From Candidatus Latescibacterota bacterium (lineage in GTDB: Bacteria; Latescibacterota; UBA2968; UBA8231): a stretch of DNA of 64,000 nt. The stretch is taken from the NCBI GenBank assembly GCA_965223905.1, contig CBDCXV010000010.1, positions 736,001-800,000 on the forward strand, given 5' to 3'. Positions 540 through 64,000 of this stretch are shown piece after piece. A program made the position numbers and the translations under genes. The notes beneath the pieces were generated by a model. The model was not told where the DNA came from. It did no database searches and saw only the letters and a program-made list of their open reading frames with translations. Every line of letters starts with the position of its first letter. Position 1 is the first letter of the stretch.

Positions 540-1559
540 ATGAAGCTGGCCATGCTGTACGGGCCGCAGGACCTGCATATCGAGGAGCGGGAGCTGGACA
601 CCGCGAACCTCGGGCCCACCGAAATCCACGTGCGCACTCTGATTTCCGCCCTCAAGATCGGGACCGACCGGGGCAACTACGAAGGAGCGGAGCGGGTTCC
701 GGGGGCCCCGGACTACCCGCGCCAAGTCGGCGACAGCAACCTCGGGGTCGTCGAGGCGGTCGGCGAGCAGGTTACGAGGTTCAAGCCCGGCGACCGGGTC
801 GTGTCACGCGTCTGGCACCAGTCGGAGTACGTCGCCGAGGCGGACGGCTCCTGGCAGATCGTCAAGGTGCCGGAAGGCGTCGACCCGGAAGACGCCGTAT
901 GGTCGCAGCTGTACACCCTCAGCGCCCACTGTTACCGCAAGGCCTGGTTCACCCCCGGAGAAACCGTCGCCGTCGTCGGCCTGGGCATCCTCGGCATGGG
1001 GGCGGTGGCGCTGGGACCCTGCTTCGGGGCACGGGTCATCGGCCTGGGCAACAGCCCCGTGCGCATGGACACGGCGCGCAGGATGGGCGCCCACGCCTGC
1101 TTCGCATCGGGCGATCCCGGACTGGCGGAGAAGATCGGCGCCTTCACCGACGGCATCGGGGTCGACCTCGTGATCCTCACCGCCAACCCGTGGCCGGCCC
1201 TGCGCACGTCGCTCGACGTGGTGCGCAGCAACGGCCGCGTCTCCATCGTCAGCCTTCCCGGCCGCGGCGAGCAGCCCCTCGACCACAACCCGCTGGCGAT
1301 GGAGCGCTTCTATATCAAGGGGATCTCGCTGATCGCGGTTTCGGAGCAGAGCGGCTATCTCTTCCCCACCGGCGGGGACCGCTTCGCCTGGCGCACAGCC
1401 TGCGCCCACACCCTGTCGCTGATGGCCGACGGCAGGCTGGAGCCCCGGCACACGATCACGCACCGGCTGAGCTACACAGAAATGAAGACCGCCTACGACA
1501 AGATCTTCAGCCGCGACAAGGACATGCTGGGGGTGATCTTCGACTGGCGCGACGCCTGA
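540..1559 (+). CDS. Zinc-binding/MDR-family dehydrogenase
   Basis: AGAGGA RBS before ATG 540; GroES-like N-domain (G.VEAVGEQVTRFKPGDRV) and Rossmann VVGLGILG. Confidence 0.85.
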   Translation: MKLAMLYGPQDLHIEERELDTANLGPTEIHVRTLISALKIGTDRGNYEGAERVPGAPDYPRQVGDSNLGVVEAVGEQVTRFKPGDRVVSRVWHQSEYVAEADGSWQIVKVPEGVDPEDAVWSQLYTLSAHCYRKAWFTPGETVAVVGLGILGMGAVALGPCFGARVIGLGNSPVRMDTARRMGAHACFASGDPGLAEKIGAFTDGIGVDLVILTANPWPALRTSLDVVRSNGRVSIVSLPGRGEQPLDHNPLAMERFYIKGISLIAVSEQSGYLFPTGGDRFAWRTACAHTLSLMADGRLEPRHTITHRLSYTEMKTAYDKIFSRDKDMLGVIFDWRDA

Positions 1560-1581
1560 GAGGCCTCCGCGCCACATGGCG

Positions 1582-2379
1582 CTACCGGTAGGCGGCCACC
1601 GCCTGCGCCGCCCCGTGACCGATCAGCTCGATCTCGGTCTCCATCTCGAAATAGCGGCAGCCTTTTTCGATCCAGCGCCTGCCTGCCTCCGGACTCGACG
1701 CGGTGGTACCGAAGGCGATGCCGCGCGAGAGGCAGACCTGCAGGACCCTCTCCATCCCTGCGAGCACGTCGGGATGGTCGTAGTCTCCGGGGTGCCCCAT
1801 TTCGATGGCGAAGTCGTAGGGGCCGACGTAGATGACGTCGAGATGGGGGGTTGCTGCGATCTCCTCGACGTTCTCCAGCCCGCACGCCGTCTCGATGTGG
1901 GCGACGACCACGGTCGCCTGGTTGGCCTTGCGCAGCCAGGCGGCGTGATCGTCGGGCAGGGCGTAGTCGGTGTTGCCGTATCCGGGCGCTCCAGCCCGGG
2001 TTCCGAGAGGCGGGAACTTCACGTAGTCGACGACGGCGGCCAGCTGCTCGCGGCTCTCCGTCCTCGGCAGCTGAATTCCCGTTACTCCGGCTTCGAGGAG
2101 ACGCCCTGTCTCGGCGCGGTTGAGCTCCCCGAGCTTCGAGATCGCAGGCAGGCGGTTGTCGCGGGCGGCGAGCACGAAATCGGTCAGCTCGGGGCCGTCG
2201 AAGAGCCCGTGCTCCTTCTCGATGTAGACGAAGTCCATGCCGGCGAGGGCGTACAGCTTGGCGAGCGATGGCCGCAGGTACTCCATCGCCGTCAGGCCGA
2301 GGGAAACCTCTCCCGACTTCAGGCGGCGTTTGAAGCCGCGGCCGAGGGCGGTCGGGTCGGGCTGTCTGGTTCGGGGCAT
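1582..2379 (-). CDS. HpcH/HpaI aldolase family protein
   Basis: DFVYIEKEHG, KFPPLGTRG, VAHIET, IYVGPYDF motifs. Confidence 0.9.
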   Translation of the reverse strand: MPRTRQPDPTALGRGFKRRLKSGEVSLGLTAMEYLRPSLAKLYALAGMDFVYIEKEHGLFDGPELTDFVLAARDNRLPAISKLGELNRAETGRLLEAGVTGIQLPRTESREQLAAVVDYVKFPPLGTRAGAPGYGNTDYALPDDHAAWLRKANQATVVVAHIETACGLENVEEIAATPHLDVIYVGPYDFAIEMGHPGDYDHPDVLAGMERVLQVCLSRGIAFGTTASSPEAGRRWIEKGCRYFEMETEIELIGHGAAQAVAAYR

Positions 2380-52087: not shown

Positions 52088-54076
52088 TCAGTCGCGGAAC
52101 GGTGCCGGTTCGTGTCGCCCTTCCGCTGCCGGGGCGGCGCGGTTGCTGGCGCAGCAGTCATTCACCTCGGCGGCAGGCGGGGAGGAAACGACGTTCTCGT
52201 GGGAGCAACAGACCTGTTCCTCGACGGGAGGCGGGGTGTGGCCTGCATCCGCGTGGGCACAGCAGTCGCTGCCCTCCGCGGCAGGCGCCGCGTCCTCGTG
52301 GGCGCAACAGTCGCTTCCGTCGGGGGAAGCGGCGTCCCCGGCGCTTTCGGGATGGACGTACCCTCCCCCGGTAGCGAACAGCTGACCGACGAACCCGCGC
52401 GGACCCCGGCGCAGCAGTGAAGTGGCCACCATCAGGGCCAGCGCCGCCAGGGAGATCTCCTGCAGTCCGGTGGAAGAGGAGTGGGCGTGATGCAGGGGGG
52501 TTCCCGGGAGAGCCGGTCCCCAGGCGTTGACGACATGCCCTGCGAGCACGGCCAGGCAGGCGATCCCGGCCCCGAACGCCAGGGCGATCCGGCGGCCGTG
52601 CAGCTGCGTGAGAATTCCGAAGGTGGTGACGTTCGTCGCCGGGCCGGTGAGCAGGAAGGCGAGCGCCGCCCCGGGGGATACGCCCTTGTAGATCAGGATC
52701 GCAACCAGAGGGGTGGCCCCGGAGGCGCACACGTACACCGGCATGCCGAGCAGGGCGAACAGCTCCACCTGGCCGAATCCGGCCGGCAGCAAGTCGACCC
52801 AGGCGGAATGGCTGGGCTCGACGACCGCGGCCAGTGCGAGACCGACCAGGATCCAGGGGGCGGTGGTGTCGACGACGTCGCGGAAACTCTCCCGGAACCT
52901 CGACAGACGCTCGCCGGCGCCGGGTGCCGCCGGGGCCGGGGCCGCAGCAGGGACGGCTCTCGGGGCGACGAAACGGCCGAGCAGCCAGCCGATCGCCAGC
53001 GCCACGAAGCCGGCCGCGGCCACTCTCGCAACGGTCATCTCTCCCCCGAGAAGGGGCAGTGATATCAGCAGGGCGTCGAGGCTGAGCTCGGGAGTCGCAA
53101 CGAGAAAGGCCATCCCCGCGGTGGCCGGGACCCCCTGCATGACGAGGCTGCGATACACCGGCACCACCCCGCAGGAACAGATCGGCAACGGCAGGCCGAA
53201 CCCCATCCCGCGAGCCGACTGCGACAGCGGCGAGCCGCGCCGCATCCAGTTGACGGAGGCCGGCGGCAGCAGGGCGTACACCAGGGCCGCGGCGACGTAG
53301 GCGAGCACCAGGGCAGGCGCACTCTGCAACCCCAAAGTGACGAAGACCTCCAATCCCCGGGACACCGCCGCGTCGAAATCATGGTATCCGCCGATGAGGG
53401 CCAGCAGGGCGATACCGGCGAGGCCTCCGAGACCGGCCCCCAGGCGAGCCTTCCGCGACGACTCGCCGCGGTTCGCAGGATGCGACCGCCGGAACAGGAG
53501 GTACAGCAGCGAGCCTGCTGCCGCGGCCTGGAAGATCCCCCACCCCCGGTTCTGCAGGAGCGCGGCGGCATCGCCGAAAGCAAGACCCCCCGCTGCCGCC
53601 GAGGCCGTGATCGCGAGCGCACCGAGGGCCCATCCCATGCCGTACCTCGGCCGCAGCAGAAACCAGATCGCCAAACCGACCGGCAGGCGGTGGAGAATCA
53701 CGGCCACCACCTGCGTCTGCGGGGAATTCGAGGAAACCGGCGCCGTCCCGCCGGCGAAGGCGTGCAGGATCAGCGCCGCCAGTCCGAGAAACAGGGCCGC
53801 GGCACGAGCCGGGCGGGCGAAACCGCTCAGCCTGCGCCCAATCAGCGGCGCTACGACGAGACCGGCGAGGATCGCGGCCGCGGCGGTCCAGCCGGCCAGG
53901 GAGATGCTGCCTGGAATGACGTGGAGAAGCACCAGACCGCCGACGGCGACGACGGCGAACCCGTCGAGGGCGGCCAGCAGCGAACGAGCCCCGCGAGCGA
54001 GCTGGTACAGCAGCGGGCCCGCGGCGACGGCGATCAGACCGGTAAACAGGAGCACGTGGATGGATTGGTTCTGCAA
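52088..54076 (-). CDS. SO_0444-type / DUF318 metal permease with N-terminal membrane domain and Cys-His repeat tail
   Basis: PLPICSCGVVP, AFL.ATPE, P.YVCASGATP, GPATN motifs. Confidence 0.85.
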   Translation of the reverse strand: MQNQSIHVLLFTGLIAVAAGPLLYQLARGARSLLAALDGFAVVAVGGLVLLHVIPGSISLAGWTAAAAILAGLVVAPLIGRRLSGFARPARAAALFLGLAALILHAFAGGTAPVSSNSPQTQVVAVILHRLPVGLAIWFLLRPRYGMGWALGALAITASAAAGGLAFGDAAALLQNRGWGIFQAAAAGSLLYLLFRRSHPANRGESSRKARLGAGLGGLAGIALLALIGGYHDFDAAVSRGLEVFVTLGLQSAPALVLAYVAAALVYALLPPASVNWMRRGSPLSQSARGMGFGLPLPICSCGVVPVYRSLVMQGVPATAGMAFLVATPELSLDALLISLPLLGGEMTVARVAAAGFVALAIGWLLGRFVAPRAVPAAAPAPAAPGAGERLSRFRESFRDVVDTTAPWILVGLALAAVVEPSHSAWVDLLPAGFGQVELFALLGMPVYVCASGATPLVAILIYKGVSPGAALAFLLTGPATNVTTFGILTQLHGRRIALAFGAGIACLAVLAGHVVNAWGPALPGTPLHHAHSSSTGLQEISLAALALMVATSLLRRGPRGFVGQLFATGGGYVHPESAGDAASPDGSDCCAHEDAAPAAEGSDCCAHADAGHTPPPVEEQVCCSHENVVSSPPAAEVNDCCASNRAAPAAEGRHEPAPFRD
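52146..52322 (-). repeat. Four degenerate coding repeats (CC(A/S)H-type)
   Basis: DGSDCCAHED / EGSDCCAHAD / EQVCCSHEN / VNDCCASN. Confidence 0.8.
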
Positions 54077-56601: not shown

Positions 56602-58737
56602 TCAGTCCGTGGCCCGGAGCCGCTCGCCGAGGGCAGTGTAGCGCCTGGCGACCTCGTCGTTGGAAATCGCCCTGCCCAGGGCCCTCCTGCCGCCGACGAC
56701 CACCAGCAGGGAGCGGGCGCGCGTGACCGCCGTGTACAGCAGGTTGCGCTGCAGCATCGGGTAATGCTGGGTGGTCAGGGGCAGCACGACGACAGGGAAC
56801 TCCGAACCCTGGGCGCGGTGGACGCTGACGGCGTAGGCCAGCACGATCTCGTCGAGAGAGTTGGCCCCGTACTCGCATGAAACCCCGCTGTCGAAACGCA
56901 CCCGGATCGAGCCTTCCTCGGCGTCGAAAGCGAGTATGCGCCCGAGGTCGCCGTTGAAGACGGCGCGCTCGTAGTTGTTGCGGACCTGCAGAACCTTGTC
57001 GCCGACGCGCAGCTCCCGTTCCCCTTTCCGGCAGACCCTGCCGTCCGGGTTGAGCCGCTGCTGCAGCAGGCGGTTGAGGTTGATGGCCCCGGTCTCCCCC
57101 CGGTACATCGGGGTCAGCACCTGGATGTCGCCGACCGGGTCGTAGTCGCCGTGGGCAGGCAGGCGGCGTCCCACGAGATCGGAGATCGTGGCCGCGGCCT
57201 CCGGGGGATCCTCCTCCTCGACGAAGAAGAAGTCGCCGTCGCGGCTGTTGCTCAGCTCCGGCCAGTCGCCGGCGTTGATGCGGTGGGCGTTGACGACGAT
57301 GCGGCTGCGGCGCTCCTGCCGGTGAATCTCGGTCAGCCGCGCAACCGGTAAGCGCCGGGAGGAGATGACGTCCCCCATGACGTTGCCCGGGCCCACGGAC
57401 GGCAGCTGGTCCGCGTCGCCGACCAGCAGCAGGCGGACATGCGGCGACAGGGCGCGCAGCAGGGCGTGCATCAGCGGGATGTCGATCATCGAGGCTTCGT
57501 CGACGATAACGGCATCGGCTTCGACCGGGTCGTGCCGGCCGCGGCGGAACCTGCCTTCCGCGGGCATGAACTCCAGCAGCCGGTGGATGGTCTTCGCCTC
57601 GCGGCCGGTCGCCTCGGCGAGCCGCTTGGCCGCCCGCCCCGTGGGGGAACAGAGGGCGACCCGCAGGCCCGCTTGCTCGAAGTGGCGGAGGATCACCTGC
57701 GTAACCGTCGTCTTCCCGGTCCCGGGGCCGCCGGTCAGGACCATCACCTTTTCCCGCAGTGCCGTTTCGACCGCCCTGCGCTGACTGGCGCTGAGATCCA
57801 GCTCGGTCGCAGGGTCTTCGCCGAACTCCGCCTCGGCACCTTGGGTTCGCAGCAGCCGTTCCAGGGCCGCGGCGACCTTCACCTCCGCGTGGTAGAGATA
57901 TGGCAGGAAGCAGCGCTCCTGGTCGCGGACGATCTGGCGGTCGTCGTCCAGGGCCTCCAGGGCCGCGGGAAACAGCTCGGCGCCGACCTGCAGAAGCTCG
58001 CTCCCCTTCTCGACGACCTCGGCCTGCGGCAGGAACACGTGCCCCTCCCCGGCCGCGGATTCCAGGAGGTAGCGGATTCCCGCCTGTATCCTCTGCGGTG
58101 CGTCGCCCGCGATCCCCAGCTGCGAGGCGACGGCGTCTGCGGTCACGAAACCGATCCCGTCGATGTCACGCTGCAGCCTGTAGGGGTTCTCGCTCACCTT
58201 CGCGATCGCCTCCTGCTCGTACTTCTGGAAAATCTTCACCGCGGCCGCGGACCCGACACCGTGCGACTGCAGAAAGACCATGGTGTCCCTCATCCGGCGC
58301 TGCCCCGCCCAGGCCCGCGCCAGCATCCCCGCCCGCTTGCGGCCCAGCCCCGGTACCTCGAGCAGGCGCCGGGGATTCTCCTCGAGCACCTTGAGGGTGT
58401 CCCCGCCAAATTGGGCGACGATGCGCTCGGCGAACTTCTTCCCCACCCCCTTTACCAGTCCCGACCCGAGAAACCGCCGGATCCCCTCCTCGGTGGTGGG
58501 AAAGACCGCCCGGCAGGACTCGAGCTTGAGCTGCCTGCCGTACTTGGGATGGTCTTCCCAGGTGCCCGTGACCTCGACGGTCTGTCCCTCAGCAACAGTA
58601 GTCATGACCCCGACCACCGTAATCCCCTCGGATGGCCGTTCCCCTTTTTCTGGCTCCGGCTCGATCTGGGCGATCGTGTAGCCGTTGTCGGGATTGTGGA
58701 AGGTCAGGCGGCGGACCAGGCCGGTCACGGTGTGCAT
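56602..58737 (-). CDS. recD2: ATP-dependent RecD2-like DNA helicase
   Basis: W..HPKYG.Q, HhH GVG/GLG, TGGPGTGKTT, DEASM, GD.DQLPSVG.G, AYA.SVH.AQGSEF. Confidence 0.95.
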   Translation of the reverse strand: MHTVTGLVRRLTFHNPDNGYTIAQIEPEPEKGERPSEGITVVGVMTTVAEGQTVEVTGTWEDHPKYGRQLKLESCRAVFPTTEEGIRRFLGSGLVKGVGKKFAERIVAQFGGDTLKVLEENPRRLLEVPGLGRKRAGMLARAWAGQRRMRDTMVFLQSHGVGSAAAVKIFQKYEQEAIAKVSENPYRLQRDIDGIGFVTADAVASQLGIAGDAPQRIQAGIRYLLESAAGEGHVFLPQAEVVEKGSELLQVGAELFPAALEALDDDRQIVRDQERCFLPYLYHAEVKVAAALERLLRTQGAEAEFGEDPATELDLSASQRRAVETALREKVMVLTGGPGTGKTTVTQVILRHFEQAGLRVALCSPTGRAAKRLAEATGREAKTIHRLLEFMPAEGRFRRGRHDPVEADAVIVDEASMIDIPLMHALLRALSPHVRLLLVGDADQLPSVGPGNVMGDVISSRRLPVARLTEIHRQERRSRIVVNAHRINAGDWPELSNSRDGDFFFVEEEDPPEAAATISDLVGRRLPAHGDYDPVGDIQVLTPMYRGETGAINLNRLLQQRLNPDGRVCRKGERELRVGDKVLQVRNNYERAVFNGDLGRILAFDAEEGSIRVRFDSGVSCEYGANSLDEIVLAYAVSVHRAQGSEFPVVVLPLTTQHYPMLQRNLLYTAVTRARSLLVVVGGRRALGRAISNDEVARRYTALGERLRATD

Positions 58738-59330
58738 GGCGATCCGCGGAAATGGGGCAGGAGAAGGGCGGGCACCAGGGCTCCGAGCAGGATCCCCGCA
58801 AACAGCTGCGGGACCGTGTGCGCCCCGAGCCGCAGCCGCGCCCAGGCGACGAGGGGAGGGACGGCCAGCAGGGCCCACTGTCCGGCGCCGCCCACCGTCA
58901 CGAGTACGAACACCCCCGCGGCGACCCCGACCGAGTGAATGCTGATCTTCCAGAAGCGGTCGATCACCCGGACAGCGGCCGCGGCCAGGGTTATGGAGGC
59001 GGCGCTCCAGGTCATGGTCCAGGCCGCATCCACGGCCGAGAGAACCAGGAAACCAGTCAGGTAGCAGACTGTTCCCATCAGGAGGATGCGCTGCCTGAGG
59101 ACCGGCTCCGGGTCGTACGCGTCCTCGAGGCCGCGCCGGCGCAGCAGCACCATGACGGCGCAGGGAAGCAGGGTGAACAGGGCGAGGGCGATCCCCAGGG
59201 CCTTCCAGTCGGTCTCGCCTGGACGCAGGATCCCCAGTCCGGCGAACACCCAGACGGCCATGGCCGCCGGACTGAACAGGTGCGACAGAACCCTGGCGAA
59301 CCTGTGCTGCCAGTCGGGGGCTCCGGTCAT
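58725..59330 (-). CDS. PAP2-like multi-TM membrane protein
   Basis: KISIH and W(A)RL.LGAHT..Q...G motifs; about six TM segments. Confidence 0.7.
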   Translation of the reverse strand: MTGAPDWQHRFARVLSHLFSPAAMAVWVFAGLGILRPGETDWKALGIALALFTLLPCAVMVLLRRRGLEDAYDPEPVLRQRILLMGTVCYLTGFLVLSAVDAAWTMTWSAASITLAAAAVRVIDRFWKISIHSVGVAAGVFVLVTVGGAGQWALLAVPPLVAWARLRLGAHTVPQLFAGILLGALVPALLLPHFRGSPCTP

Positions 59331-59562
59331 GTCTTCCGGACCGGGCACCGGTTTCCTATCCAGAGGGGAAATGGTGGCAAGGGAGTGTCAGGGCCCGCCG
59401 TCGATGAGCGGGAGAACCGGGGACCGCGGGCAGCGGTCGGCGCCGCAAGCGATGCATCGGCGAAGAGACGCGGTTCCTCCCCCTCGTTTTTTAACTTGCC
59501 GCTCGCGGCCGGCGCTCTGAAGTATTCCAGACAATCAGCAGTTCGCAGGCGCCTCGGAATTA

Positions 59563-59585
59563 CAGATCCGCCTTTGGCGGATCTG
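59563..59585. repeat. Perfect palindromic hairpin (REP-like, or terminator of the minus-strand operon)
   Basis: CAGATCCGCC-TTT-GGCGGATCTG, about 35 nt past the PqqD-like stop. Confidence 0.6.
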
Positions 59586-59618
59586 CCGGTATCTCCGACA
59601 GGTTCTCCTGCTCGCTTC

Positions 59619-60056
59619 TCACTTATCCCACTTCTTGCCGCTCGAATTTGCCTTGGAATACTTCGGCTTCCGCTCGGAGCTCTCCGCCCCATCGAGGACG
59701 AAGCCGACGAAACGCTTCTGCCCCAGCGTCTTCAGGTACTGCAGCAGCGACACCTCCGCCTCCTTGCGGTCGAGCTTGTACTTGACGCGCAGCTCCTCGA
59801 TCATCTGCCCGACCGAGGTGCGGCCGTTGCACATCTGCCAGATCTCGGTGCCGACTTCGTCGAGAGTGATGGTGCGCTTCCTGGGGACGTAGAACAGCTT
59901 GGAAAGCAGCCGCACCTTCCAGGAGTCGATGCGGGTGACGGTTATGCGGGCCTCGCCGCTTTCCGTCTTATCCCACTGGAGCAGGTCGTTACGCGCCGGA
60001 CGCGAGTTGAGCATCGCCTCGCGCGTCAGCTTCGGTTTCTTGCGGGTGGCAAACAT
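59619..60056 (-). CDS. PqqD-family / RiPP-recognition-element-like protein
   Basis: LDEVG..IW.MCNG..SV.Q.IE.L...Y......E.SL..YL..L....FV winged-helix pattern. Confidence 0.85.
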   Translation of the reverse strand: MFATRKKPKLTREAMLNSRPARNDLLQWDKTESGEARITVTRIDSWKVRLLSKLFYVPRKRTITLDEVGTEIWQMCNGRTSVGQMIEELRVKYKLDRKEAEVSLLQYLKTLGQKRFVGFVLDGAESSERKPKYSKANSSGKKWDK

Positions 60057-60993
60057 AGACGGCGCTCAGGCGGTCGGTGAGGTCGTCGCGCTCCTTTACC
60101 CTCTTGTAAAGGTGTTCGACGACGCAGATGCGGTTCCCCTCCTCGCAGTGCCAGACGAGGGCGTCGAGGTGCTGGCGGGGGCGCGGGTTGAGCAGCGGCA
60201 GGGGCCGCAGCAGTTGGCGCCAACGGCTGCGCGGCCGCCCGGTCACCCGCAGTCCCTGGTGATCCCCCACCCCGGCCTCGGCGACGTCGTAGTTGAAATC
60301 GCGCAGCTGCTTGCGGAAGAAGTTGGGGTACCACTCCTCGAGGGTCGTCGCCTTGAGCAGCATCTGCGCCATGCTGAGGCGCTGAACCCGGCAGCTTTGG
60401 TTCTTCCTCTCGAAGGTCATCTGGATGTTGCCGGACTTGAGCTCGTGCTTGGAGAGGGCGAACTCCTCGGGCACGCAGAAGGACATGCCGTAGACGCTCC
60501 AGTAGCGCATCCTGTCGTCCCTGTGGCAGACGACGGAGCGGAAGACCCGGTCGGCGAGCTCTTCGAGGTTCTCCGTGAGCCGGGCGAGGACGCGCAGCAG
60601 CAGGATGCGCCCGCAGTCGGGACAGGCGCGCGCCAGGTTGTAGGCGAGGTAGTCGGCGCGCCAGGTAAAGGCCTCGTACTCCGCCCCCTCGAGCCAGCGC
60701 TTGTCGCGCAGGAACTTTGCCTGCCTCGTCACCGAGAAGGGAGTGTCCGCCTTCTCCGCTTTCTTCGCCAGCTTGTCGAGGTAGCGCTCTACGAGGTCGG
60801 GGACCGGCATTCTTCGCCCCCGGTCCGGCGTCTCCCGCCATTCGACTTCGGCGCGGACGATCTCGGCGTCGTCGAGACGGGCGTAGCCGCTCTTCGCGTC
60901 GCCGTCGACCTTGCCCAGGTTCCAGTCATCCGGCACGCGCAGACAGATCCCCTGCCATCCGAAGTCCGCCCAATCGACTCCACGGTCAGCCAT
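59989..60993 (-). CDS. Conserved hypothetical protein with two internal repeats
   Basis: Halves begin FGWQGICLRVPDDW and WSVYGMSFCVPEEF and end ACPDCGRILLL and WHCEEGNRICVV; strong GC3 bias. Confidence 0.75.
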   Translation of the reverse strand: MADRGVDWADFGWQGICLRVPDDWNLGKVDGDAKSGYARLDDAEIVRAEVEWRETPDRGRRMPVPDLVERYLDKLAKKAEKADTPFSVTRQAKFLRDKRWLEGAEYEAFTWRADYLAYNLARACPDCGRILLLRVLARLTENLEELADRVFRSVVCHRDDRMRYWSVYGMSFCVPEEFALSKHELKSGNIQMTFERKNQSCRVQRLSMAQMLLKATTLEEWYPNFFRKQLRDFNYDVAEAGVGDHQGLRVTGRPRSRWRQLLRPLPLLNPRPRQHLDALVWHCEEGNRICVVEHLYKRVKERDDLTDRLSAVYVCHPQETEADARGDAQLASGA

Positions 60994-61014
60994 TTGCAAC
61001 GCACCTGTGGCGAA

Positions 61015-63435
61015 TCAGAAGATGAGAACGGAAACCGACTTCTGGATCAGGGCGATGGAGATCGAGGCCATCCCCATGAGCGCCATGCCGCAGGCGAACC
61101 CGACCGCAAGCACCGGCGCGTACAGCCGCCACTCCTTCTTGCCGTACTTGCCCCAGAAATAGTAGCGGGCCAGCATGGCGCCGATGACCTCGGTAATCAT
61201 CCAGTGCGGGATCGTGGTCAGAGCCCGGACGTACCCGAAGACCAGCAGGATCGGCAGGCCGAAAATCGACAGCAGGATGTAGCTCCCCAGGCCGACGATG
61301 GCGCCGGCGGCGATGATGTTCGGCTTGATGGCGCGGAACAGCCACGGCTCGTCGGTAGTGCGCTGGATCCACGGACTGGAGAAGTTGGGGTCGGTGTCGA
61401 GGGCGAAGTAGTACTCCCAGCCCTCGGGAAGCGGTTCGTCGGAACGCACCACCATCTCCGGTCTCGGGGTGCGGACAATGCCGACTTCGGCTGCCGGGGA
61501 GACCGCGGTCACCCCCGGTCCGGTCAGGGCCACCGCCGCTGCGCCCGCATCCGGCACACCCTTCATGGCGCCGGGAGGATGCTCGGGAATCAGCTCCGGC
61601 TCCCCCTCGTCGAAATGGGTGAAGAAGGCCCGCTTCTCCGACCACCGCCCGGCCTGCCCCTGCTTGCCCTTCGACTCGAGCCAGGCGGGGTCGACGGCCC
61701 GCACCCGCCAGTACCACCACTCCCCCTCGACCAGGTTCGCCGGCATCCAGGCCGCTTCGGAGCGGTCGGGCAGGTACTCCATTTCGCTGCGCAGGGTCCC
61801 GGTGAACCAGAGACAGGTCTGCAGAGCCTGAAGCCTCCACATCACCTGGGCGTACGGGTACGACGCCGACGGAATCGGCGCCAGCTTCCAGACGTAGGAC
61901 GAGTACAGGAAGGTGGTGAACAGCACGATCGGCACCATGAAGACCTCGGCCTTGATGATGCTGGTGAAGCGGGTTCCGGTCAGCTCGATTTCGCGAAATT
62001 TCTGGCACTGGTTGCCGTAGTTCCCCAGGGGGAACGGTATGAACCAGATGTCGACCCCCTGGTACCCGGACAGAATGATGGTCGCTTCGCGTACGAACGG
62101 GATGTCGACGCTCTGCCCCACCATGCCGTACAGGCGGGCGTTGACGAACGACTGGAACGGGGTGAAGACGAAGCCGAAGAACAGGAAGAACCAGATGAAG
62201 CTCTTGAACGCCGGCAACAGGAAAGCGGCGATCAGGATCAGGCCGCTCGTGGCCACCGCGTACAGCCCCAGCGCCGTCCACAGCGAAAAATCTCCCCGGC
62301 CCTTCGGGACCTCCCAGCTGCGCCTTACTTCCCCGACCCTGCCTCCGGCATCGCGGGCGCGTATCAGGGCCTGGGCGACCTGGTAGAAACCGATGATGGC
62401 GATCGCCATGGTCGTCCCGATGCCGAAGCTCATCCAGAAATCGACGCTGTTGACGAAGAAGGTCTCGATCGCCCCCATCCCCGGCTGCCAGATCTCCAGA
62501 AGACCGTACTTGTAGAGGAAGGGGTTGGCGATAGAGTGCGCGACGACCCCGAGAAAGGTCCCGATCACCCCCCAGAAGGGGACCACCAGACCGGCGAAGA
62601 TCGGCCCGAGATGGGCGGTGAATCCCAGCGGCGTCGCCGGGATGAAGTTGCCGGTGACCTGGGTGAAGTCTACGAAGGGGATCGGTATCAGCTGGATCGG
62701 CTCGGTGAGCAGGGCGCCGGTGATCGCCGGGATGGCGACGTAGAGGGCGCCGAAGACGAGCCCGATCATCGCTCCTGCGGAAAACACCCGCCAGCGCCAG
62801 GACTCGACCCCCTGGGTGGTCTCGGCCAGCGCCGTGGCCCCCTGGGCCGCTACCGGGGCGAAGGGAAAGGGCAGGCGCTCGTAGTCGGAGCTGACGCGGA
62901 AGAGGGCGTACGCCGCGGTGAACCAGGAGACGCGCGCAATCAGCACGCCGGCGACCAGCAGGGCGATCGGCAGCAGCCAGTCGGAGTGCAGGAAGGTCCG
63001 CTGCAGCAGCGCGGCCGATTCGAGGGGTGGCGCGAACCAGTCGGGAATCAGGTTGGCGATACCGAACTGCTTGGCCGCCGGGGACTGGCGCAGGTACTGG
63101 TTCCACAGCAGGCCCTGGAAGGAGCCGGTCTCGGCGGCGATCAGCCCGGCCGCGACGTAGTAGAGGACGTAGACTTCCTGCTTTCTCAGCGACGAGAAAG
63201 AGCGCTTGGTGATCTCGGCGAACAGGATGATCGTCACCCACTCCGCGGCGGCGCCGAGATTGCCGCCGACCATCAGCCCCAGGTAGATGTTCCCGGGAAT
63301 CATGATGAAGGCGACGAAGAGGACGCCGAGGATCGTCTTGGTCGTAAACCCCTCTTCGAACTCGGTAGGGGTATCGAGAAGATCCCGGTACTCTTCTATT
63401 TCCGCGTTCGGGTTCCTGTCTTTGCGAAACAGCAC
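61015..63435 (-). CDS. OPT-like multi-pass membrane transporter with soluble insertion
   Basis: 806 aa, many TM segments; P..IYL.L..G, E.LPFP.A...A motif reminiscent of OPT-family (L.FP) proteins. Confidence 0.7.
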   Translation of the reverse strand: MLFRKDRNPNAEIEEYRDLLDTPTEFEEGFTTKTILGVLFVAFIMIPGNIYLGLMVGGNLGAAAEWVTIILFAEITKRSFSSLRKQEVYVLYYVAAGLIAAETGSFQGLLWNQYLRQSPAAKQFGIANLIPDWFAPPLESAALLQRTFLHSDWLLPIALLVAGVLIARVSWFTAAYALFRVSSDYERLPFPFAPVAAQGATALAETTQGVESWRWRVFSAGAMIGLVFGALYVAIPAITGALLTEPIQLIPIPFVDFTQVTGNFIPATPLGFTAHLGPIFAGLVVPFWGVIGTFLGVVAHSIANPFLYKYGLLEIWQPGMGAIETFFVNSVDFWMSFGIGTTMAIAIIGFYQVAQALIRARDAGGRVGEVRRSWEVPKGRGDFSLWTALGLYAVATSGLILIAAFLLPAFKSFIWFFLFFGFVFTPFQSFVNARLYGMVGQSVDIPFVREATIILSGYQGVDIWFIPFPLGNYGNQCQKFREIELTGTRFTSIIKAEVFMVPIVLFTTFLYSSYVWKLAPIPSASYPYAQVMWRLQALQTCLWFTGTLRSEMEYLPDRSEAAWMPANLVEGEWWYWRVRAVDPAWLESKGKQGQAGRWSEKRAFFTHFDEGEPELIPEHPPGAMKGVPDAGAAAVALTGPGVTAVSPAAEVGIVRTPRPEMVVRSDEPLPEGWEYYFALDTDPNFSSPWIQRTTDEPWLFRAIKPNIIAAGAIVGLGSYILLSIFGLPILLVFGYVRALTTIPHWMITEVIGAMLARYYFWGKYGKKEWRLYAPVLAVGFACGMALMGMASISIALIQKSVSVLIF

Positions 63436-63476
63436 TTAGATCCCCTTCGCTCGCTTCCTTCGCCGCGCCTTCCCTG

Positions 63477-64000
63477 TCAGGCCGTTACCTCGGTGCGCTC
63501 ACCAGCGAGGATCTCGACGCCCTGTTGGCGGTACGAGTCCTTGGCCTCGGAGTCGACGGTCCGCCAGATCAGAAACTGCTTGCGGATGACGTTCATGAAG
63601 CGCTGGTTGACCCGCCGCCAGGAGGCATCCTCGCCGCTGAGGCGGCGGATGTCCAGCGATATCGAGTAGATGTTGTGCTCGGATTCCGGGTTGGCCCGGA
63701 TGACGACGTGCTGACTCACCCCGAGGTCGAAGGGCGCCAGCCAGATGTTCATGTCGATCGAGTAACCTTCGCCGTGCTCAGAGTCGAAACGGCTCAGGCT
63801 CGCCCCGTCGGTGTAGAAGGTGCCGATCGACTCTTCGCTGTACGAGTCGAAGTAGCCGATAAGGAATACGCTGAGGCCGACGACTTCGTGCCCGCTGACC
63901 GTGAACGGGAACTCGAAATGCCACTCGTCCCCCGACGGCGGCGGCAGTCGCCACTTGCGGGTGACGTCGGGAACCGCCATCTGCGAGGCCTTGCGGGCCG
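63477..64000 (-). CDS. C-terminus of a large FtsX-like ABC permease protein (runs off the window end)
   Basis: Frame open to 64000; (P)ARKASQMAVPD resembles the FtsX/MacB terminal PAR.A motif, followed by a soluble domain (LAPFDLGVSQ, RKQFL.WR). Confidence 0.65.
   Translation of the reverse strand, partial: ARKASQMAVPDVTRKWRLPPPSGDEWHFEFPFTVSGHEVVGLSVFLIGYFDSYSEESIGTFYTDGASLSRFDSEHGEGYSIDMNIWLAPFDLGVSQHVVIRANPESEHNIYSISLDIRRLSGEDASWRRVNQRFMNVIRKQFLIWRTVDSEAKDSYRQQGVEILAGERTEVTA

Follow-up and report, generated by a model that had tools for sequence, protein, structure and literature searches.

We found that four co-oriented genes on the minus strand, at one end of a 64,000-nt stretch of the genome of a Candidatus Latescibacterota bacterium (hereafter the window; assembly GCA_965223905.1, contig CBDCXV010000010.1, positions 736,001 to 800,000), are with high probability part of a conserved system of six genes, here called A to F, whose parts are of known kinds and whose combination is not, and which belongs with the type VII ATP-binding cassette (ABC) systems. 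The ORF listing of the window places A, B, C and D at 59619-64000; they encode an FtsX-type permease, a membrane protein with a modelled OPT fold, a soluble protein of two PsbP-like domains and a PqqD-type protein, and E and F encode a short FtsX protein and an ABC ATPase. Two phyla without close relationship to each other, Latescibacterota and Armatimonadota, share the six-gene order. A first-pass annotation, made from the letters of the window, had described the four genes as an uncharacterised membrane system. In what follows, L and G labels denote loci and genomes of this analysis, G000 is the window's genome (7.9 Mb, 11 contigs, among them C1, C10 and C11; the window is G000:C10:736001-800000), and gene boundaries outside the window come from an ORF heuristic.

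Gene order around C or D was determined by tblastn in 20 loci from other genomes of the window's phylum. Every one of the four loci from the window's own family had the order A-B-C-D, as did two deep lineages (L031 and L036), and E followed by F lay directly 3′ of D in all five deep Latescibacterota loci that were scanned downstream (L031, L033, L035, L036 and L037). The ABC ATPase that the first-pass annotation had advised looking for thus belongs to the ancestral operon, in deep Latescibacterota and in Armatimonadota, though it is unlinked in the window's genome, where the E-F pair has moved away from the operon to another contig (Table 1); E and F of G000 are 46-58% and 69-77% identical, respectively, to the deep-lineage proteins. 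Only C and D were adjacent in nine loci (L024-L030, L038 and L039), and in the genomes behind five loci (L032-L035 and L037) these two genes were on separate contigs. Among 121 genomes of the phylum, G000 included, which are related to each other and give counts that are not independent, A was present in 107 (E ≤ 1e-100), B in 107 (E ≤ 1e-20), C in 102 (E ≤ 0.001), D in 99 (E ≤ 0.001) and E in 101 (E ≤ 1e-25). Each of the five was found in nearly all families other than f10, and each was found in none of the 13 genomes of f10 (64-97% complete). Moreover, C, D and E were single-copy almost everywhere in the phylum, and in 94 of the 99 genomes holding both, C and D were on one contig within ∼2.2 kb. 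D adjoined E in 10 deep-lineage genomes, and A adjoined B in families where C-D stand apart, for example in G058, G007, G073 and G097, which were compared by eye and not fully tabulated.

Conservation was verified in two phyla. The second came from the Atlas, where the nearest C clusters came most often from Gemmatimonadota, Armatimonadota and Poribacteria, which we took as a lead only; the Gemmatimonadota label may reflect mislabelled metagenome-assembled genomes (MAGs), and Armatimonadota was the phylum checked. A scan of species genomes with the distant C relative P0291 led to two Armatimonadota MAG records, both of which held one A (39% identity), one B (E = 1e-231), D (E = 1e-40), E (41% identity) and F, dispersed save for E-F. 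Identities between the phyla were ∼37-43% for E, 36-39% over ∼1500-1550 residues for A and 64-70% for F, an ATPase that is unusually conserved. C was present in 46 of 61 Armatimonadota genomes, once in each, and 20 loci around it were examined by tblastn. Nine of these carried A-B-C-D-E-F in the same order and on the same strand (L080, L082, L085, L086, L087, L089, L091, L094 and L095) and two carried C-D-E-F (L081 and L097); in five, a RodA/FtsW gene was directly before C (L078, L079, L083, L093 and L096), with A-B located 2 kb upstream in L078, and the other four showed C with none of these neighbours (L084, L088, L090 and L092). Some Armatimonadota loci have additional genes within the operon; these were considered as extra core members and rejected, since they are lineage-specific and not shared. 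The first-pass annotation had staked its reading on the four genes occurring together in other genomes, and they do so, with the order kept across both phyla.

Within the window, A and B are separated by 41 nt, B and C by 15 nt if C starts at TTG or by 21 nt with the next ATG, and the start of D lies inside the end of C with an overlap of 68 nt, which is also kept in loci of the window's own family. A hairpin without a T tract lies 33 nt past the stop codon of D, and the 51-nt stretch around it folds with −26.1 kcal/mol (z = −4.78 against shuffles); a terminator scan called no site after D, the hairpin being missed because it has no T run. ORF listing and folding therefore reproduced the gaps of 41 and 21 nt, the 68-nt overlap and the closing hairpin that had been reported, and DNA beyond the window agreed with the remark that the upstream part lies outside it, as A extends to the equivalent of position 68261. 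Each of the four genes has hundreds to thousands of homologues, and judged from sequence all four are real genes, beyond chance. Contigs from RNA libraries (four runs of one study, labelled sponge metagenome) cover parts of A, B, C and D, mostly at an identity of at least 99%, and the four runs contain 47-49% of sampled words from the locus. Such contigs bridge the A/B junction (X4 record 31, 63196-63689), the B/C junction (X1 record 2, 60835-61442) and the C/D junction (X1 record 1, 59954-60167). They are no proof of a single transcript, DNA carry-over is possible and gaps in coverage carry no meaning, and they lend weak support to expression of the four genes. Separately, 96-98% of the sampled words of window positions 59300-64000 occurred in DNA runs of two further organisms; the source organism is probably sponge-associated, and both the public names of near-identical homologues and the Atlas put it in Candidatus Latescibacterota.

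Table 1. Coordinates of the six-gene system and of other features named in the text. Positions without a prefix are those of the window.
Feature	Position	Strand	Basis or remark
Gene A, last 173 codons in window	63477..>64000	-	ORF list; open at window edge
Gene A, whole, 1594 aa	G000:C10:799480-804261	-	DNA beyond window; to equivalent of window position 68261
Gene B, 806 aa	61015..63435	-	ORF list
Gene C, 336 aa	59989..60999	-	ORF list
Gene D, 145 aa	59619..60056	-	ORF list
Hairpin 3′ of D, 11-bp perfect stem, 3-nt loop	59562-59586	-	Sequence and fold
E-F pair of window genome	G000:C1:853469-854992		F is C1:853469-854248
LolC/E-like pair with own ATPase	G000:C10:908755-911034		Separate from A-F
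Closest A paralogue with the UPF0182 gene after it	G000:C10:2120205-2127831		L043:6143-13831
Further A copy	G000:C10:605828		Placed by coordinates
DUF6785 genes, two examples	G000:C10:1856376-1857863; G000:C11:1746989-1748503
Phosphoglycerate-mutase-like genes	L033:10547-11752; L037:8160-9368; L053:10694-11902		L033 and L037 Latescibacterota, L053 Armatimonadota
Group II intron reverse transcriptase/maturase ORF	L118:3052-4014 (G000:C10:960051-961013)
PAP2-like membrane protein	58725-59348	-	Downstream; weak match
RecD2 helicase	56602-58878	-	Downstream; TIGR01448, 851 bits
Hpre_diP_synt_I-type membrane protein and 475-aa NusG_II-domain protein	L009:9447-11391	-	Upstream of A, beyond window
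RelA/SpoT gene	L009:10411-12795	+	Overlaps NusG_II ORF as called
662-aa polytopic membrane ORF	52088-54076	-	Translation only

By hydropathy, A starts with a signal-like N terminus, taken as a signal peptide, which is followed by ∼850 periplasmic residues, three transmembrane (TM) helices (887-965), a further one at 1009-1029, a periplasmic domain that is probably a MacB-type core, three more TM helices (1307-1422) and, after this last FtsX helix, a C-terminal domain of ∼170 aa. Residues 1317-1428 match Pfam FtsX (PF02687) at 55.2 bits, well over the cut-off (25.5), residues 1240-1428 match MacB 5lil (phmmer, E = 3.3e-10), and residues 1021-1200 match MacB_PCD at 20.5 bits (E = 6.2e-4), under the cut-off of 27. 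Hence the naming of the first gene as FtsX-like was right, whereas the part of A inside the window (1422-1594) is the domain past the last FtsX helix, and the FtsX domain is almost wholly beyond 64000. A reading of A as a duplicated FtsX permease was dropped, because the first three-TM cluster is not detectably FtsX and there is only one detectable FtsX unit. A peptidase domain, which had also been suggested as a thing to seek beyond 64000, was found in A itself: residues 37-325 are a PA and M28-like domain that matches the PA+M28 aminopeptidase YwaD (6hc6, E = 2.1e-8), and residues 238-319 match the first part only of Peptidase_M28 (PF04389; 32.5 bits, cut-off 21.3). Aligned with YwaD, HYD is changed to YYD, the bridging D to E and EE to HH, and the last two ligands are not alignable; the metal and catalytic residues of M28 are replaced in all 11 orthologues and paralogues of the A family that were aligned (with Y for H, E or D for D, and HH or HF for EE). 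By these alignments, the canonical M28 site is lost and the domain retained. Downstream of it lies a periplasmic stretch of ∼550 aa without assigned family, and residues 325-860, 860-1000 and 1420-1594 gave zero Pfam matches even at E = 10.

The protein E (216-239 aa) contains little beyond four TM helices and an FtsX domain (Pfam FtsX, 66-73 bits), with a periplasmic loop of only ∼35 residues, and it stays far from the cut-offs of lolCE (48-55 bits against 362) and of FtsX_Gneg (28.6-31.3 against 255). F is an ABC ATPase whose best models, LolD, MacB, DevA and FtsE, are all under their cut-offs (LolD 225-236 bits against 307.75, FtsE 203-205 against 264.85), and its likeness to the exporter ATPases of bacteriocins and darobactin is about as strong as that to LolD. 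The set thus shares with the type VII ABC systems MacAB-TolC, LolCDE and FtsEX the FtsX C-terminal domain in A and E, the probable MacB-like core in A and an ATPase of the LolD/MacB/DevA/FtsE type, and, like LolC/LolE/LolD2, it combines a long and a short FtsX protein with one ATPase. It differs from them in that A adds the ∼850 periplasmic residues, the PA/M28-like domain, three extra TM helices and the C-terminal domain, that E is nearly without periplasmic loop, and that an OPT-fold partner and two cytoplasmic proteins are in the set; moreover, its conserved neighbours include neither a membrane-fusion protein nor a known hydrolase partner, and no equivalog cut-off is reached. The candidate assignment of E-F as FtsEX was ruled out for Armatimonadota, where two genomes hold a separate FtsX-like gene, so that the six-gene set is not simply the FtsEX of that phylum; neither the window's genome nor its congener gave a match to a full-length FtsX model.

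B is a polytopic membrane protein whose AlphaFold model, of moderate confidence (pLDDT 73.8), has the OPT/YSL fold with a β-sandwich domain inserted at ∼549-694. In Foldseek the model matched barley Yellow Stripe 1 (YS1; 7wst_A, E = 4.8e-9, TM 0.52 by query length and 0.67 by target length; next match E = 0.023), and in VIA-align it superposed on YS1 (7wsr_A) over 531 residues with Z = 21.1 and rmsd 4.4 (next Z = 6.8). The earlier label of an OPT-like transporter therefore holds for the fold; it does not hold for membership of the Pfam OPT family by sequence, since B gave no Pfam (E ≤ 0.1) or NCBIfam family and no match to the OPT model PF03169. It further differs from the OPT/YSL proteins in its identity of 13-14%, in the inserted β-sandwich and in its fixed place beside an FtsX protein. 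B has at least 4243 homologues, of which the best 120 are 67-94% identical and nameless or called ‘hypothetical protein’, and its alignment A2, of paralogues and deep orthologues, contains 107 invariant columns, many of them charged. Proteins with DUF6785 and DUF6784 (PF20581/PF20580) adjoin A paralogues in place of B, and their short motif YERLxFP aligns with B, whereas the profile comparison is too weak for a call of homology (hhalign with a single sequence and then a three-sequence profile, E = 0.035 and 0.011, probability 1.5-3.8%, the higher value being that at E = 0.011).

The other two products are soluble. C has no signal peptide and no hydrophobic or TM segment, it has no Pfam or NCBIfam family above cut-off, and its profile, like that of B, found nothing usable among PDB sequences. 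Its model (pLDDT 90.5) consists of two tandem PsbP/Mog1/DcrB-like domains (8-159 and 160-320), which bears out the duplicated-domain protein of the first-pass annotation: VIA-align placed residues 8-159 on 2xb3_A (Z = 13.1, rmsd 3.1, 140 aligned) and residues 161-325 on 3hlz_B (Z = 13.0). For the whole chain, the top Foldseek matches were the two-domain immunity proteins TplEi/Tli4 of the type VI secretion system (T6SS), which share with C both the fold of its halves and the tandem arrangement; unlike them, C is cytoplasmic by sequence, is only ∼10% identical, has a Cys3-His set of positions and was seen in no T6SS context. Structure comparison showed that the fold is also common to Eag-type chaperones such as SciW and to the envelope proteins DcrB and LpqN. 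A profile search of 1.84 billion representatives returned 1760 cluster representatives at E ≤ 0.001, a number that fell to 994 at a threshold of 1e-10 and to 248 at 1e-30, and a search with the wide C alignment returned close Latescibacterota relatives only and no further taxa; a quick tree of the family was used solely to choose sequences. Over 94 distant sequences of the C family the residues C126, C285, C317 and H318 are nearly invariant, and in some close Latescibacterota relatives these Cys/His positions are replaced; by their conservation, they may form a metal site.

D is, as had been proposed, a stand-alone PqqD/RRE protein: it exceeds the cut-off of Pfam PqqD (PF05402; E = 4.6e-13, 49.7 bits against 23.4), and it has no export signal. 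Every NCBIfam PqqD subfamily is under cut-off (best 32.2 bits against 80), the weak best matches being lasso-peptide and PQQ (pyrroloquinoline quinone) chaperones. In the alignment A4, a conserved N-terminal extension of ∼55 aa precedes the PqqD/RRE-type domain (56-117), and a conserved basic tail follows it. D thus resembles PqqD or lasso B1 as a small stand-alone protein, and departs from them in its own extension and tail, in the lack of a partner enzyme or precursor seen near it and in being tied to an ABC system and a PsbP-like protein. No gene for a radical SAM enzyme, cyclase, protease, or PQQ or RiPP enzyme (RiPP, ribosomally synthesized and post-translationally modified peptide) adjoins D in any locus scanned, that is in the window, in L009 and in the Latescibacterota and Armatimonadota loci. 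The earlier statement that no PQQ enzymes, radical SAM or precursor peptide are visible therefore stands for the enzymes among the scanned neighbours; as to the precursor, such ORFs were not searched systematically.

Genes beside the operon in other genomes gave a lead only, a link to RodA. Besides the Armatimonadota loci listed above, RodA was directly before C in L047 and L048 of that phylum, and in the Latescibacterota genome G015 a PBP2-type transpeptidase gene is followed by RodA and then by C. Of the five RodA loci among the 20 from Armatimonadota, four have a TPR gene after C, and TPR proteins flank the operon in several lineages. A SPOR-domain gene was near D in one Armatimonadota locus, and a D-Ala-D-Ala ligase gene was 3′ of the operon in L036. 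A gene for a phosphoglycerate-mutase-like metalloenzyme (cofactor-independent) lies just upstream of D in two Latescibacterota loci, and the same gene type lies two genes from D in one Armatimonadota locus (Table 1). No outer-membrane or periplasmic adaptor partner was conserved beside the operon in the loci scanned.

The window's genome contains seven A-family and four B-family genes. Extra A genes adjoin B-like or DUF6785+DUF6784 proteins (L041, L045, L046 and, by coordinates, a further copy on C10; Table 1). The closest A paralogue (69% identity, L043) is followed by a 939-aa UPF0182 protein (PF03699, E = 2.3e-288), which is not B-like, and has an ExbD gene upstream; genes for ExbB, ExbD, a TonB-dependent receptor and an M42 peptidase are near A paralogues. 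Among 34 neighbouring genes scanned around the other six A paralogues there was no ABC ATPase, which fits a shared E-F. A second orphan MacB-type ATPase adjoins uvrB in this genome, and a separate LolC/E-like pair has its own ATPase (Table 1). As a side observation, the DUF6785 family has 58 matches in G000, of which ∼45 are full-length, and 14 control model genomes gave no match. Its neighbours in 20 loci (L100-L119) are mostly catabolic or secreted: glycoside-hydrolase-like proteins, aldose epimerases, a BNR/sialidase-like protein, M20 peptidase, gamma-glutamyltranspeptidase, GDPD, GFO/IDH/MocA oxidoreductases, and T9SS-tagged and FG-GAP proteins. DUF6785 looks like a greatly expanded family of uptake carriers.

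We propose, tentatively and with slightly less than even confidence in the mechanism as a whole, that a type VII ABC motor (A+E+F2) acts on peptide-like periplasmic material, with B as carrier and C-D on the cytoplasmic side. By analogy with LolC-LolE-LolD2, F2 would hydrolyse ATP on a heterodimer of E and the FtsX unit of A; A.E.F2 would be the simplest assembly, because A contains a single FtsX unit, E is such a unit in bare form and the genome has one E-F pair for its seven A genes. The movement would be passed to the periplasmic domains of A, which would seize or unfold peptide-like envelope material, and the PA/M28-like domain would bind without cutting, much as the dead LytM domain of EnvC serves FtsEX. 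B, which always adjoins A, would then carry the small product across the inner membrane, presumably inward as OPT proteins do, and D, with its peptide-binding fold, would together with C receive the cargo or gate the motor from the cytoplasm. PqqD/RRE domains bind peptides, and the known type VII ABC systems perform mechanical work in the periplasm rather than import. The first-pass annotation had inferred that the genes import peptides or glycopeptides, the RRE serving as an adaptor in the cytoplasm; a single-copy, near-universal set with housekeeping neighbours suits envelope housekeeping at least as well as nutrient uptake. For the core copy, we favour cell-wall-derived or other envelope peptides as substrate (recycling or housekeeping), because it is single-copy and near-universal, has housekeeping neighbours and recurrently adjoins RodA. 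Extra A-B copies, by their paralogue neighbourhoods, probably serve nutrient uptake.

Several observations weigh against this proposal. B has no Pfam OPT match at E ≤ 0.1, and a shared fold reveals neither substrate nor direction; the pairing of A with E comes from domain counting only, and peptide binding by an M28-like domain whose catalytic residues are replaced is a guess. To our knowledge, the known type VII ABC systems (MacB, LolCDE and FtsEX) push outward or regulate, and we know of none that feeds an importer. Moreover, five of the 99 genomes of the phylum that hold both C and D have them on separate contigs (G001, G004, G010, G015 and G025), RodA adjacency is a minority pattern, and two genomes of Armatimonadota, including one that holds the whole operon, have a full-length FtsX-like gene separate from E. 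A bolder form, in which A-F are one envelope machine with A.E.F2 and its dead-peptidase arm mechanically coupled to B, controlled by the PqqD and PsbP-like proteins and in partnership with Rod (RodA/PBP2) for uptake or turnover of cell-wall peptides, seems to us unlikely to be right. If true, at least two phyla would have a housekeeping function that model bacteria lack, and this would be the first case of a type VII ABC system feeding an importer and of an RRE-type domain that acts outside the synthesis of peptide natural products.

The motor might instead face outward, A+E+F2 extracting or handing on a lipoprotein, a surface protein or a polymer precursor as LolCDE and MacAB do, with B exporting or flipping the precursor and C-D delivering or chaperoning the cargo. 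Every type VII ABC system characterised so far acts outward or on a partner in the periplasm, F is best matched by the LolD, MacB and DevA models, the set is single-copy and near-universal with a very conserved ATPase, the fold of C is common to SciW-type Eag chaperones, DcrB and LpqN, and TPR proteins are beside the operon in several lineages. However, the sole solved relative of B, barley YS1, is an importer, no conserved outer-membrane or periplasmic adaptor stands beside the operon, and the genome has its separate LolC/E-like pair with ATPase, and we consider outward assembly improbable, about on a par with the Rod-coupled machine. Less probable again is a regulator after the manner of FtsEX, in which A and E would transport nothing, A would bring its own degenerate peptidase domain, comparable to the LytM domain of EnvC, and movement driven by ATP would turn a Rod cell-wall enzyme on and off, with B, C and D as accessories. 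The two systems are alike in joining an FtsX-type motor to a peptidase-fold domain without catalytic residues, and this domain has been conserved in A though these residues are lost; C adjoins RodA/FtsW in two phyla, the SPOR-domain and D-Ala-D-Ala ligase genes each lie nearby in one locus, and no full-length FtsX match was found in the window's genome or congener. Unlike in FtsEX-EnvC, the domain of A is of the M28/PA and not the LytM/M23 type and is fused to the permease instead of bound to it, and it has no known amidase partner. Such a regulator would moreover leave unexplained both the constrained OPT-fold carrier fixed beside A, with its 107 invariant columns, and the seven A paralogues of one genome, the E protein reaches ∼28-31 bits against the FtsX cut-off of 255, and the separate FtsX-like gene of the two Armatimonadota genomes also speaks against it.

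The locus is not a PQQ or RiPP locus. A maturation pathway in which D, as RRE, would present a precursor to an enzyme that modifies it, with export of the product by the ABC system, is a very remote prospect: D is a bona fide PqqD-family domain with weak best matches to lasso-peptide and PQQ chaperones, and F is like bacteriocin and darobactin exporter ATPases about as much as LolD, but all PqqD subfamily cut-offs are missed, none of the scanned loci has a radical SAM, cyclase, protease or PQQ gene beside D, and a single-copy, near-universal set with its order conserved in two phyla is unlike a natural-product cluster. We give still less credence to the view that these are housekeeping genes that merely travel together without a joint function. 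The set is indeed split in several lineages (into A-B and C-D, or into three pieces, C, D-E-F and A-B), whereas the same six genes stand in the same order in two phyla, A to E are jointly absent from one family (0/13 for each) and the start-stop overlap of C and D is kept in the window's own family.

Full-text literature searches, with subscription journals outside their scope, returned no description of this gene combination; within the texts so covered, the earlier statement that no characterised pathway has this composition stands, and no already described locus came up. Type VII ABC systems (Lol, FtsEX and MacAB) are central to building the Gram-negative envelope, and each of those known is surprising in using ATP without classical transport. 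The system described here adds a further member whose three partners, the carrier with the OPT fold, the PqqD domain and the protein of tandem PsbP-like domains, are unprecedented; in most Latescibacterota it is nearly universal and present as a single copy, its marker C is present in three quarters of the sampled Armatimonadota, and its pieces are absent from, or unrecognised in, 14 model genomes, the controls used for the DUF6785 family. It also makes the function of a large family of hypothetical proteins (C, with its 1760 cluster representatives) accessible to testing, widens the supposed roles of RRE/PqqD domains and provides an entry to the envelope biology of phyla from which few or no members have been cultured.

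The genes that flank the operon of the window are housekeeping genes (Table 1). Downstream are a weak PAP2-like membrane protein and the helicase RecD2, whose ORFs overlap by ∼150 nt as listed, one start probably being later. Immediately upstream of A, beyond the window, are genes for an Hpre_diP_synt_I-type membrane protein and a NusG_II-domain protein, the latter overlapped by the RelA/SpoT gene on the opposite strand. Elsewhere, a group II intron reverse transcriptase/maturase ORF lies between two DUF6785 genes of L118, and a polytopic membrane ORF of the window, read from its translation, ends in a Cys-rich C-terminal tail with the repeats DCCAH.., CCSHE.. and DCCAS...

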